Shown one piece after another: positions 4,946 through 48,063 of a stretch of DNA of 64,000 nucleotides. The stretch's first letter is position 1; the number at the start of each line of letters is the position of its first letter. The translations under genes and the position numbers were made by a program. This DNA comes from Escherichia phage MX01: the sequence record NC_031934.1; one strand, given 5' to 3'. Below the pieces are notes generated by a model. The model searched no databases and was not told the origin of the DNA. It was given only the letters and a program-made list of their open reading frames with translations.

Positions 4946-4976
4946 ACAAAAAAAGGCCCAACCTTTCGGAAGGGCC
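4946..4976 (-). terminator. intrinsic terminator (hairpin GGCCC...GGGCC followed by U-run on the minus strand), copy 1 of 3
   Basis: aaaaaaaaGGCCCAACCTTTCGGAAGGGCC; identical to copies at 5572-5599 and 48035-48063. Confidence 0.6.
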
Positions 4977-4981
4977 TAGAA

Positions 4982-5536
4982 TCAGTTCCTGTAGAACCGG
5001 AATGGGTTTATGTGGAAGGCTAACATAGCCTTAGGGATTTTACGAGACAAAAGACTCTTAAGTTTCCAACCACAGTATACACGAAGGTAAAAGGTAATCC
5101 CACCTACTTTAAGATACGGAACTGAAGCAAAGACTCCCCATGCTTCGTCATTCCACATCCATAACCATCCATGATGAGCTTTATCAGGAGAACCGGATTC
5201 AACGTCAGGATTACCACGATAATGGAATTCTGAGCTACAATCGCGTCCAAGTTTATGGTAAGCAAAGTTATAAGCTTTATTTCGCCACAGCCAAGCTACT
5301 CTCTGGAGATAAACACCGCCAGGCATTTTCCTGATTTTAGCCCAACGTTTAATATGGCCTTTGTCACCGTCAATTGGATTATCGTATGTCATCATCCAAT
5401 CAAAGCCATAAGGCAATTTACCGGTCTTTTTATTATGAAAAGGGACTACAAAAGGTGCAAGGATAACAGCCAGAACCATAGAGATAAAATCTAGAGGGAC
5501 CAACAGTACCCAACTCAAATATTTTAAAAGTTTCAT
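4982..5536 (-). CDS. hypothetical Trp-rich protein with N-terminal transmembrane segment
   Basis: 184-aa ORF; N-terminal hydrophobic stretch LSWVLLVPLDFISMVLAVILAPFVVPF; AGGAAA RBS; late promoter upstream. Confidence 0.55.
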   Translation of the reverse strand: MKLLKYLSWVLLVPLDFISMVLAVILAPFVVPFHNKKTGKLPYGFDWMMTYDNPIDGDKGHIKRWAKIRKMPGGVYLQRVAWLWRNKAYNFAYHKLGRDCSSEFHYRGNPDVESGSPDKAHHGWLWMWNDEAWGVFASVPYLKVGGITFYLRVYCGWKLKSLLSRKIPKAMLAFHINPFRFYRN

Positions 5537-5562: not shown

Positions 5563-5570
5563 TATTTATA
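5563..5570 (-). promoter_or_regulatory. T4-type late promoter TATAAATA
   Basis: Plus-strand tatttata = TATAAATA on the minus strand, 26 nt upstream of ATG 5536. Confidence 0.5.
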
Positions 5571-5571
5571 C

Positions 5572-5599
5572 AAAAAAGGCCCAACCTTTCGGAAGGGCC
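5572..5599 (-). terminator. intrinsic terminator, copy 2 of 3
   Basis: aaaaaaGGCCCAACCTTTCGGAAGGGCC; ends the tRNA/stable-RNA transcription unit. Confidence 0.6.
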
Positions 5600-5835
5600 T
5601 TTAACCTAGGGTAACCTTGTCGGGGTTCCACCTGCTAGGCAAGTGTTCGGTGCGCCGTTTCTGCTGTGATATAAGGGGACATTAACGAATCGTAAAGATT
5701 TATTAATGCCGGTCCTTAAACAGGGAACATCAGTCCGACGACTTACCGGTAGCGACCCGGTTTCTTGTTTGTTGCGCCGGTGAATGCTGGTAATCAGTCT
5801 TCATACGACGGCTTGACTATATAATAGTCTTCATT
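5600..5835 (-). ncRNA. ORF-free structured region downstream of tRNA-Arg; candidate small stable RNA(s)
   Basis: About 235 nt with no ORF, GC-rich inverted repeats (e.g. CCGGTAGCGACCCGG), between tRNA-Arg and a terminator; T4 encodes stable RNAs beside its tRNA cluster. Confidence 0.25.
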
Positions 5836-5910
5836 TGGTATCCCGCCCTGGGATCGAACCAGGACCGCAAACTTAGAAGGATCGTATGCTATCCATTACA
5901 CCAGCGGGAC
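5836..5910 (-). tRNA. tRNA-Arg (anticodon TCT)
   Basis: Minus-strand reading GTCCCGCTGGTGTAATGGATAGCATACGATCCTTCTAAGTTTGCGGTCCTGGTTCGATCCCAGGGCGGGATACCA; cloverleaf with TTCGATC T-loop, anticodon loop CTTCTAA, encoded CCA. Confidence 0.85.
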
Positions 5911-5915
5911 ATAGT

Positions 5916-5992
5916 TGGTGACCCGGACCAGATTTGAACTGGTAACCTTTCCCTTATGAGGGGACTGCTGCTAACCATTGAGCTACGGGGCC
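5916..5992 (-). tRNA. tRNA with CAT anticodon (Met, or Ile via lysidine)
   Basis: Minus-strand reading GGCCCCGTAGCTCAATGGTTAGCAGCAGTCCCCTCATAAGGGAAAGGTTACCAGTTCAAATCTGGTCCGGGTCACCA; T-arm ACCAG-TTCAAAT-CTGGT, anticodon loop CTCATAA; one acceptor-stem mismatch. Confidence 0.7.
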
Positions 5993-6264: not shown

Positions 6265-6438
6265 AAACACCTCAAATAAAATTAAGTAAAGTAAGTTTGA
6301 TTAATAGACCTTGTCTATTATGAAAGGCTCTTTGAGGGAAGAACCTTTGGTAATAGAGGGTATTAATGATAGAGTAATAATAACACATTACTCTTAAAGC
6401 ATATTACTATTTTTAGGAATAGTCTGGCCAAATTTGAT

Positions 6439-10223: not shown

Positions 10224-11060
10224 TTATGAATTCTTCCATACTTTCTGAGCTGAATAACGCTTGCCTTTAGACATGAACTGTTGGAGCGGCATCATTACGA
10301 CATTAGCCCAATCAGACGGTTTTATCTCTACTAAAGGTCCCTTAATATTTCCAGGGATATAAGCCTTAATCATCACGTCGGCGCCAGCGAATCCTTTTAC
10401 CTTACTCCAATCGATTTTTAATTTAGTCGAGTTCGTAATGGTAGGCGTACTCGCGTATTGCTTCAGCAATTCTTCCAGAAATTGCTGACGTGCTTTAGGT
10501 GGAATATAGTGTAAGTTCAGTCCGTACATTAAATTATGCTTACCTAACCCAAGATAAATTATTAAAGGATATTTGTCCCAGTATGGTAGGGTATCCTTAT
10601 GTTTAGCATCATAGATATAAGCATAAAGCTTACCAGGAGACGGTTTAGATACCTGGTGTCCACGAATTCCTTTCTTTAATGTTTCTGTAAACCATTTAGC
10701 TGATTTATTGTTTACGGCAGCGCCTTCGTTAGCAATCTTATCGCGAATACTCTTTCTAAAACTATTCACCAAAATTAATTGACGTTCGGCTTTGGTTAAT
10801 TTATTGCCAGGTTTCTTCTGAAGTTTTTCAACCTGTACAGCAGTTTTAATTCGACTCGAGTATCGAGACATCGCAGATGTAAAGCTAGAATACTTGATGC
10901 CTTTATCTTCAGCGAATTTCTTAGCCGAGACACCTTTAGCCTTGGCATTGGCATATTCAACGCCTAAAGCTATCCATTGTTGTTCTGAACGAGTAGGCTT
11001 AGAACCTTTTGTAGTTTCAGTAGCCTCGTTTATGTAAGAAAATATACTCATCCTTTCCAT
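10224..11060 (-). CDS. 2: gp2 DNA end protector protein
   Basis: 278 aa; position between 4 and 3; overlaps gene 4 by 13 nt. Confidence 0.75.
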
Positions 11061-48033: not shown

Positions 48034-48034
48034 A

Positions 48035-48063
48035 CAAAAAAGGCCCAACCTTTCGGAAGGGCC
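48035..48063 (-). terminator. intrinsic terminator, copy 3 of 3
   Basis: Identical aaaaaaGGCCCAACCTTTCGGAAGGGCC; good U-run only in the minus direction. Confidence 0.55.

Follow-up and report, generated by a model that had tools for sequence, protein, structure and literature searches.

Results

Organization of the tRNA operon

The window analyzed in this study, a 64,000-nt stretch of the genome of Escherichia phage MX01 (NC_031934.1), groups with the T4-like Dhakavirus, and a blastn search of 50,697 phage records showed that phages LHE83, QL01 and WG01 are 97-98% identical to it at the locus described here. The two tRNA genes mentioned in an initial annotation made from the sequence lie on the minus strand, and both were found by ARAGORN and Rfam (Table 1). 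A tRNA with the anticodon CAU heads the stable RNAs of the operon. It is the orthologue of T4 tRNA-Ile(CAU), from which it differs at 2 positions; it is labelled Met(CAT) by ARAGORN and is probably an isoleucine tRNA (tRNA-Ile2) after lysidine modification. A spacer of 5 nt (5911-5915) separates it from a tRNA-Arg(UCU) that is 100% identical to T4 tRNA-Arg and whose CCA end is encoded. Ahead of the tRNAs, a TGCTTTA box, a 12-nt spacer and a TATTAT sequence (6401 to 6377) probably constitute, judging from the pattern, a MotA-dependent middle promoter that feeds the operon.

The strong terminator with which the region had been proposed to end was recovered as AGGCCCUUCCGAAAGGUUGGGCCU followed by U6 (-15.6 kcal/mol, z = -3.75); a simple terminator scanner missed it because of a UU/UU internal loop. 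The 30-nt terminator module AGGCCCTTCCGAAAGGTTGGGCCTTTTT occurs three times on the minus strand of the window (5572-5600, 4949-4977 and 48034-48063), one copy being located directly after a 184-aa ORF at 4982-5536. The T4 late-promoter consensus TATAAATA is found on the same strand at 5563-5570, starting 1 nt past the U-run of the operon terminator.

The approximately 235 nt that follow the tRNAs had been described as free of ORFs, richer in GC than their surroundings and furnished with several inverted repeats, and these descriptions hold. No ORF of more than 25 aa is present in any frame between 5835 and the terminator; the GC content of 5600-5835 is 46.6%, compared with 39.9% in the whole window and 39-40.5% in the flanking CDSs; and a 266-nt stretch has a minimum free energy (MFE) of -84.5 kcal/mol (z = -3.61), a stability equalled by none of 200 dinucleotide shuffles, so that the inverted repeats exceed chance. 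The span first proposed, 5600-5835, thus marks a real feature, but its extent was drawn slightly too short, as the feature continues to 5572.

It had also been stated that no tRNA cloverleaf could be folded here. ARAGORN and the Rfam tRNA model (RF00005) found only the two known tRNAs and none within 5572-5835, even at E <= 10. One feature does recall a tRNA arm, namely the geometry of a hairpin of 5 bp and 7 nt (P1, described below), but this hairpin lies 5' of the terminal helix, unlike in a cloverleaf. Similarly, a 24-codon ATG ORF (5804 to 5730) and a 25-codon ORF on the plus strand can be read from the sequence, but they span the boundary between the mini element and rnaD (both described below), which occurs in only 25 records, have no Shine-Dalgarno sequence and are not conserved, and the substitutions in this region follow helices, not codons. 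We therefore regard it as extremely improbable that the region is a small protein gene or a degenerate tRNA.

Table 1. Features of the tRNA/rnaD operon in the window and locations of rnaD in two Vequintavirinae phages
Feature	Position	Strand	Evidence or description
Candidate MotA-dependent middle promoter	6377..6401	-	Pattern match only
tRNA, anticodon CAU	5916..5992	-	ARAGORN; Rfam tRNA, 50.7 bits
tRNA-Arg(UCU)	5836..5910	-	ARAGORN; Rfam, 48.8 bits
Mini element, 65 nt	5771..5835	-	Alignment with LHE83, RB27 and T4
rnaD, 120 nt	5649..5768	-	Alignment to annotated RB27 and T4 rnaD
rnaD P1	5745..5761	-	5 bp, ACCGG/CCGGU; nearly invariant 7-nt loop GUCGCUA
rnaD rod	5650..5742	-	Pair counts, alignments A2 and A3
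Junction without rnaC	5645..5649	-	Three-way alignment
3' trailer (external transcribed spacer), ~50 nt	5598..5648	-	Cross-genus conservation
Intrinsic terminator of the tRNA/rnaD operon	5572..5600	-	Fold and U6
rnaD in A5-4	L023:9809-9909 and 10703-10822		
rnaD in A7_1	L024:9324-9424		

Identification of an rnaD orthologue

The central 120 nt of the region align end to end with an ncRNA of phage RB27 that bears the annotation rnaD ("species II RNA") and with the T4 misc_RNA rnaD ("small, stable RNA; species 2 RNA"); the neighboring T4 rnaC is annotated as "species 1". Over these 120 nt, the identity to T4 rnaD is 86.0% (match at NC_000866 71050-71168) and that to rnaD of RB10/RB14 is ~94%. 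A covariance model of rnaD built in this study (R1) scored 139.6 bits at the same position (E about 1e-32), and the conserved block extends from ACAAGAAACC to GGCGCACC. The gene order is also retained: the RB27 annotation runs tRNA-Arg, rnaD, rnaC, and in the window rnaD is likewise located downstream of tRNA-Arg on the same strand and upstream of the operon terminator, the sole difference in synteny from the T4 type being a 65-nt element, here called the mini element, between tRNA-Arg and rnaD. An Rfam 15 scan, which had been proposed as a check in the initial annotation, returned nothing besides the two tRNAs, whether at the gathering score or at E <= 10; the best matches of the region reach 11-13 bits against thresholds of 42-88, and rnaD and rnaC of RB27 have no matching Rfam 15 family either.

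The ends of rnaD can be delimited by comparison. In all five contexts compared, conservation begins with (A/U)NGAA and stops with GCGCA(C/U)C; rnaD is preceded in these contexts by one of two types of tRNA-Arg, by a CDS, by the mini element or, in Vequintavirinae, by tRNA-Met or tRNA-Tyr. The borders match the ends annotated in T4. From that annotation and this conservation we infer the likely transcript ends in MX01. Taken as a whole, the minus-strand region from 5835 to 5572 is, with high probability, the tail of a tRNA operon of the T4 type; this tail is non-coding, and its core is the orthologue of T4 rnaD. Its membership in the rnaD family is assigned by sequence, synteny and structure, and accumulation as a stable RNA is a property known from T4.

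The initial annotation had considered the 235 nt as a candidate for one or more small stable RNAs, by analogy with those encoded in the tRNA cluster of T4. The homology and synteny of rnaD bear out this proposal, but the stretch is not a single RNA: a three-way and a nine-way alignment resolve the segment, and the 235 nt comprise four parts (the mini element, rnaD, the trailer and the start of the terminator). It holds only one of the two T4 RNAs because rnaC is missing.

Secondary structure and covariation of rnaD

Each of the 23 distinct homologues, folded singly, adopts a common layout. We derived the structure with RNAalifold and explicit pair counts on two alignments, A2 (22 sequences, MAFFT) and A3 (25 sequences, covariance-model-based). 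Hairpin P1 is joined by a linker AA to a rod, the base of which is P2, formed by GUCGUCG (5742-5736) and CGGCG-C-AC (5657-5650) with an invariant bulged C. Between P2 and P3 (UGUU, 5729-5726, with AGCA, 5665-5662) lies the internal loop GACUGA/GAAA, and between P3 and P5 (5719-5715 with 5675-5671) the loop CCCUG/UCAC, both of them invariant; the rod ends in an exchangeable apical stem-loop (5710-5678). Tandem G-A pairs adjoining P3 are possible in this model.

The comparative evidence for these helices is as follows. In P1, 100% of the cells are paired, and three of the five pairs have changed on both sides (AU/GC/GU; CG/UA; CG/AU). Over the whole structure, 91.7% (A2) and 93.0% (A3) of the cells are paired, compared with 29-45% when the 3' partners are slid, and 10 (A2) or 12 (A3) pairs, located in P1, P3, P5 and the apical stem, have changed on both sides; examples from P3 and P5 are the column pairs 40:112 (UA 13, AU 6, GC 1), 52:102 (UA 18, GC 4) and 53:101 (AU 18, UA 4). 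None of 500 shuffles of A3 reached the observed values in four of five measures, the fifth, further pair types, being reached in 37/500; for A2, the count was 0/500 in three of five measures and 22/500 for pairs changed on both sides. The analysis of folding and covariation across relatives that had been suggested at the outset therefore finds a conserved region with compensatory changes in P1, P3, P5 and the apical stem, although part of this signal is phylogenetic because the sampled sequences are closely related. While P1, P3 and P5 covary, P2 shows only changes from G-C to G-U and no double compensatory change, so that it is supported by energy and G-U-compatible changes only.

Several other readings of the structure were discarded. 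The single-sequence MFE pairs CUG with CAG and UGU with ACA, but these pairings show no covariation and are broken in 7-9 of the 22 sequences, and they were replaced by P3. A hammerhead-like reading (CUGAUG...GAAA) fails on inspection, since U40 and G42, which would belong to the "core", show Watson-Crick covariation and only two helices, not three, meet at the junction. A canonical kink-turn or box C/D motif, again by inspection, did not fit.

The unchanging parts of rnaD are mostly unpaired (the P1 loop and the two internal loops), P2 with its bulged C being nearly invariant as well. The apical domain, in contrast, comes in a short version of 16 nt and in at least three others that cannot be aligned with one another, and every version is a hairpin. 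Selection thus preserves most of the sequence in the basal part (the loops and P2), whereas in the apical part it preserves the fold alone. We considered whether the region might nevertheless be non-functional, that is, a processing by-product or a decaying remnant with chance structure. In about 50 years no function has been found, the neighboring rnaC can be lost, and the mini element is perhaps itself a decayed copy. However, large portions of rnaD, among them P2, the adjoining GACUGA loop and the 3' GAAACGG, are identical in three genera and in the Vequintavirinae between unrelated flanks, the helices are kept by compensatory changes, swapped apical domains still fold, and an adaptive single-nucleotide change, described below, restores a pair. 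We accordingly give this explanation very little credence.

The mini element

The mini element is present in LHE83 and absent from RB27 and T4; it occurs in 25 phage records only, all at least 98.7% identical. Its leader, AAUGAA, is followed by the hairpin GACUAU-UAU-AUAGUC, an AA linker and a rod of 39 nt (GCCGUCG..UGAA..CUG-AUUAC-CAG..UUCA.CGGCGC), with an MFE of -16.4 kcal/mol (z = -3.06). This layout, a 6-bp hairpin followed by a rod, is that of rnaD minus the apical domain. Moreover, the start AAUGAA is similar to the start of T4 rnaD, AAUGAG, each following an identical tRNA-Arg, and the corresponding segments in the mini element and rnaD are AAGCCGUCG (counterpart of AAGUCGUCG), an identical GACUGAU, CAGCA, and CGGCGCAAC (counterpart of CGGCGCACC). 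The local alignment of the two beats 1983 of 2000 shuffles (p about 0.009). The rnaD model scores 9.4 bits end to end on the mini element (E = 0.002 in 77 nt, E = 2.3 in 88 kb), a score also attained by an unrelated site in the window, and a 9-nt direct repeat, AUGAAGACU, found twice in the mini element, could explain part of the similarity. On this comparison of sequences, we put the chances that the mini element derives from rnaD, as a shrunken second copy or a remnant, slightly above even; that it is functional we rate lower.

Absence of rnaC and conservation of the trailer

Downstream of rnaD, the sequence reads GGCGCACC-GAA-CACUUGCC, and a three-way alignment showed that 146 nt of LHE83 (L002:1713-1858), RB27 and T4 are precisely absent at this junction. 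No significant match to T4 rnaC was found by BLAST in the 64-kb window (none with E < 0.9). The identical junction without rnaC is present at L010, L016, L017, L020 and L022, with vB_EcoM_005 and IME341 among its carriers, and VR20-type phages contain an ORF-bearing insert of ~0.5 kb in the rnaC slot. Since rnaC is thus present, absent or replaced, the boundary between rnaD and the trailer is a recurrent point of cassette exchange, and the natural genomes without rnaC show that rnaD and rnaC are separable. In LHE83 (L002:780-1445), a homing-endonuclease gene lies between the two tRNAs, like segB of T4, whereas the window has none; without the endonuclease and without rnaC, the window holds the most reduced version of the locus.

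T4, RB27, RB69 and the closest relative of MX01, LHE83, carry rnaC (species 1 RNA; T4s001) as a second small stable RNA in this operon. T4 rnaC is 139 nt long, has no sequence similarity to rnaD and contains a tRNA-like T arm, CCGGG-UUCGAAU-CCCGG. The T arm is canonical, and rnaC may be descended from a tRNA and contain a large insertion. The rnaC of phage G4507 (L006:766-859) is a 94-nt "tRNA-Lys(ttt)" according to ARAGORN and the GenBank record.

Following the junction, the first ~36 nt of the trailer, ACACUUGCC(U)UAGCAGGUGGAACCCCGACAAGG, are identical in all but 5 columns among 19 distinct loci of Tequatrovirus, Mosigvirus and Dhakavirus. This near-invariance holds with rnaC, without rnaC or with the ORF-bearing insert and goes far beyond the needs of a spacer. 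The structure of the trailer is unremarkable (z = -0.47). In older T4 work, an RNase III cut was placed downstream of species 1. Candidate roles for the trailer are a processing signal for 3' maturation and an independent RNA of the 3'ETS type. A comparison can be made with 3'ETS-leuZ of the E. coli glyW-cysT-leuZ tRNA operon, reportedly an sRNA sponge according to work by Lalaouna and colleagues from 2015: the trailer, too, follows the final stable RNA of its tRNA operon and precedes an intrinsic terminator. This likeness, one of position, is an analogy for the trailer, not for rnaD. We dropped the idea that it is part of the T4 origin oriE, which a review places near repEA with no mention of the tRNA region.

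Distribution and genomic contexts of rnaD

Homologues of rnaD were found in 733 of the 50,697 phage records, in phages of Escherichia, Shigella, Yersinia, Salmonella, Citrobacter and Serratia. None of 5,426 complete E. coli genomes contains a match, and a host origin was rejected on this basis. A scan of IMG/VR yielded 14 rnaD loci, on T4-like contigs as far as checked, and a scan of metagenomes yielded 11 true matches, all on T4-like contigs, together with 1 further chance match; no new context was found there. Unexpectedly, rnaD is also carried by the Vequintavirinae A5-4 and A7_1, where the copies start 0-3 nt after the CCA end of a tRNA (Table 1). A 101-nt form with an apical domain of 16 nt instead of 35 nt directly follows tRNA-Met, and the second copy of A5-4, of the 120-nt form, directly follows tRNA-Tyr. 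These occurrences suggest that rnaD moves horizontally as a self-contained unit.

The constant association with tRNAs raises the question of whether the segment acts only in cis, as a structured spacer in the tRNA precursor that would guide or protect the processing of the neighboring tRNAs, for instance as a barrier to 3' exonucleases or an insulator of folding, and would have no role once released. In favor of this, rnaD always lies within tRNA operons and is placed 0-3 nt past the CCA end in T4, RB27, JS98-type phages and both Vequintavirinae copies. However, in RB69-, G4507- and BW-1-type phages, a CDS of ~115 aa parts tRNA-Arg from rnaD, which is equally conserved there, and in the window it is the mini element, not rnaD, that adjoins the tRNA. 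Invariant loop sequences would be superfluous in a barrier, and the T4 homologue is among the accumulating late RNAs identified by RNA-seq (PMC9697503). We consider the spacer explanation unlikely, although it retains some weight.

A single-nucleotide change in rnaD of phage BW-1

The one lead to the function of rnaD comes from a study of phage BW-1. Three lines of this phage were adapted to E. coli ECOR34; the only SNP common to them is in rnaD, and the virulence score used in that study (RBG) rose from 0.17 to 0.98 (PMC12685909). The original paper gave the location of this SNP as "at position 41 ... 3' end" and made no mention of a restored pair (PMC12685909). We map it (L007:674; OR125554 position 164264) to nt 76 of rnaD, where it is A>G on the RNA strand. 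The change converts CACAG...CUAUG into a fully paired apical stem, CACAG...CUGUG, by restoring a C-G pair; the predicted MFE falls from -25.9 to -31.0 kcal/mol, and the fold shifts to the family consensus. G at nt 76 is the majority natural allele, being present in most type-B alleles. This argues that a correctly folded rnaD matters on some hosts; alternatively, the SNP could act via neighboring genes instead of rnaD.

Discussion

The two small RNAs of T4, rnaD and rnaC, were seen in the 1970s, and T4 deletions of the tRNA region that include both are viable on laboratory hosts. Few orphan RNAs have been known to molecular biology for as long, and neither is in Rfam. The roles of species 1 and 2 RNAs have been described as unknown (PMC3014915). 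In T4, the reported start of the transcript with the tRNAs and species I-II is a middle promoter that precedes the cluster, and species I and II are contained in a precursor of ~1.75 kb that ends after species I (PMC2330249). More recently, RNAC and RNAD were classed by RNA-seq as accumulating late RNAs, a northern probe being described only for RNAC, and both were called "small regulatory RNAs" without data (PMC9697503).

How might rnaD of MX01 be produced, and what might it do? We propose that transcription would start near 6401, at the MotA-type promoter, or from a point farther upstream, would run through a 90-aa ORF, tRNA-Ile2, tRNA-Arg, the mini element, rnaD and the trailer in this order, and would stop at the operon terminator. 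Host tRNA-processing nucleases, by inference from T4, would then release the tRNAs and an rnaD of ~120 nt. We further propose that rnaD would be stable because its ends are locked in P2 of the long rod, behind the small hairpin. As for its action, we tentatively favor, at somewhat less than even chances, a trans-acting RNA that binds a protein or serves as a decoy and thereby tunes infection on particular hosts. The basal loops would then be the binding site, and the role would be an accessory one of the host-range type, not an essential one.

A base-pairing regulatory sRNA is a different possibility, in which GUCGCUA, GGACUGA and CCCUG would be seeds directed against host or phage mRNAs. The invariant unpaired segments of rnaD and an operon with an intrinsic terminator fit such a function, and the "small regulatory RNAs" label given without data (PMC9697503) points the same way. 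Nevertheless, the mature 3' end in the T4 annotation is not the terminator U-tail used by Hfq-dependent sRNAs, and the candidate seeds are not long enough to search a genome meaningfully; we therefore judge this possibility rather improbable. Similarly doubtful, in our estimation, is a broader scenario in which the operon tail comprises several independent ncRNAs, namely a functional mini paralogue reduced to the hairpin and the basal rod, a separate 3'ETS-type RNA made up of the nearly invariant trailer and the terminator, and a host-range rnaD that interacts with a defence system or another host factor. If true, such a role of rnaD would explain both the modular move of rnaD into the Vequintavirinae and the single-nucleotide adaptation of BW-1.

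The value of the MX01 locus lies in comparison. The rnaD in the window is a real feature but is already known in kind, and nothing in the window is categorically new. What the comparison yields is a structure supported by covariation with invariant nucleotides in its loops and, in addition, genomes that lack rnaC, exchangeable apical domains, rnaD in an unrelated phage subfamily and a structural reading of the SNP. Together, the structure, the natural variants and the mapping of the SNP make the function of rnaD easier to test.

Among rod-shaped bacterial RNAs that bind proteins, no Rfam model of 4.5S/SRP RNA, 6S RNA or the Y-RNA-like YrlA matches the region, even at E <= 10. Nevertheless, rnaD resembles these families in having its ends paired in a terminal helix, conserved internal loops that hold the invariant nucleotides and a variable distal part, and in being, as known from T4, a stable and abundant RNA. 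The closest known system is T4 itself, of which the MX01 arrangement is a minor variant: a mini element precedes rnaD, and both rnaC and a segB-like endonuclease between the tRNAs are lacking. T4 rnaD (T4s002, NC_000866 71053-71171) starts 1 nt after the CCA of tRNA-Arg, whereas the 65-nt element intervenes in MX01; rnaC follows 6 nt downstream of rnaD in T4 and is missing in MX01; the apical stems differ at several positions, in part compensatorily; and the CCA-like end is CACCA in T4 and CACCG in the window. The P1 loop, P2, the internal loops and the 3' end are identical in the two, and in both phages rnaD lies after tRNA-Arg on the same strand and is followed by the same type of trailer and terminator.
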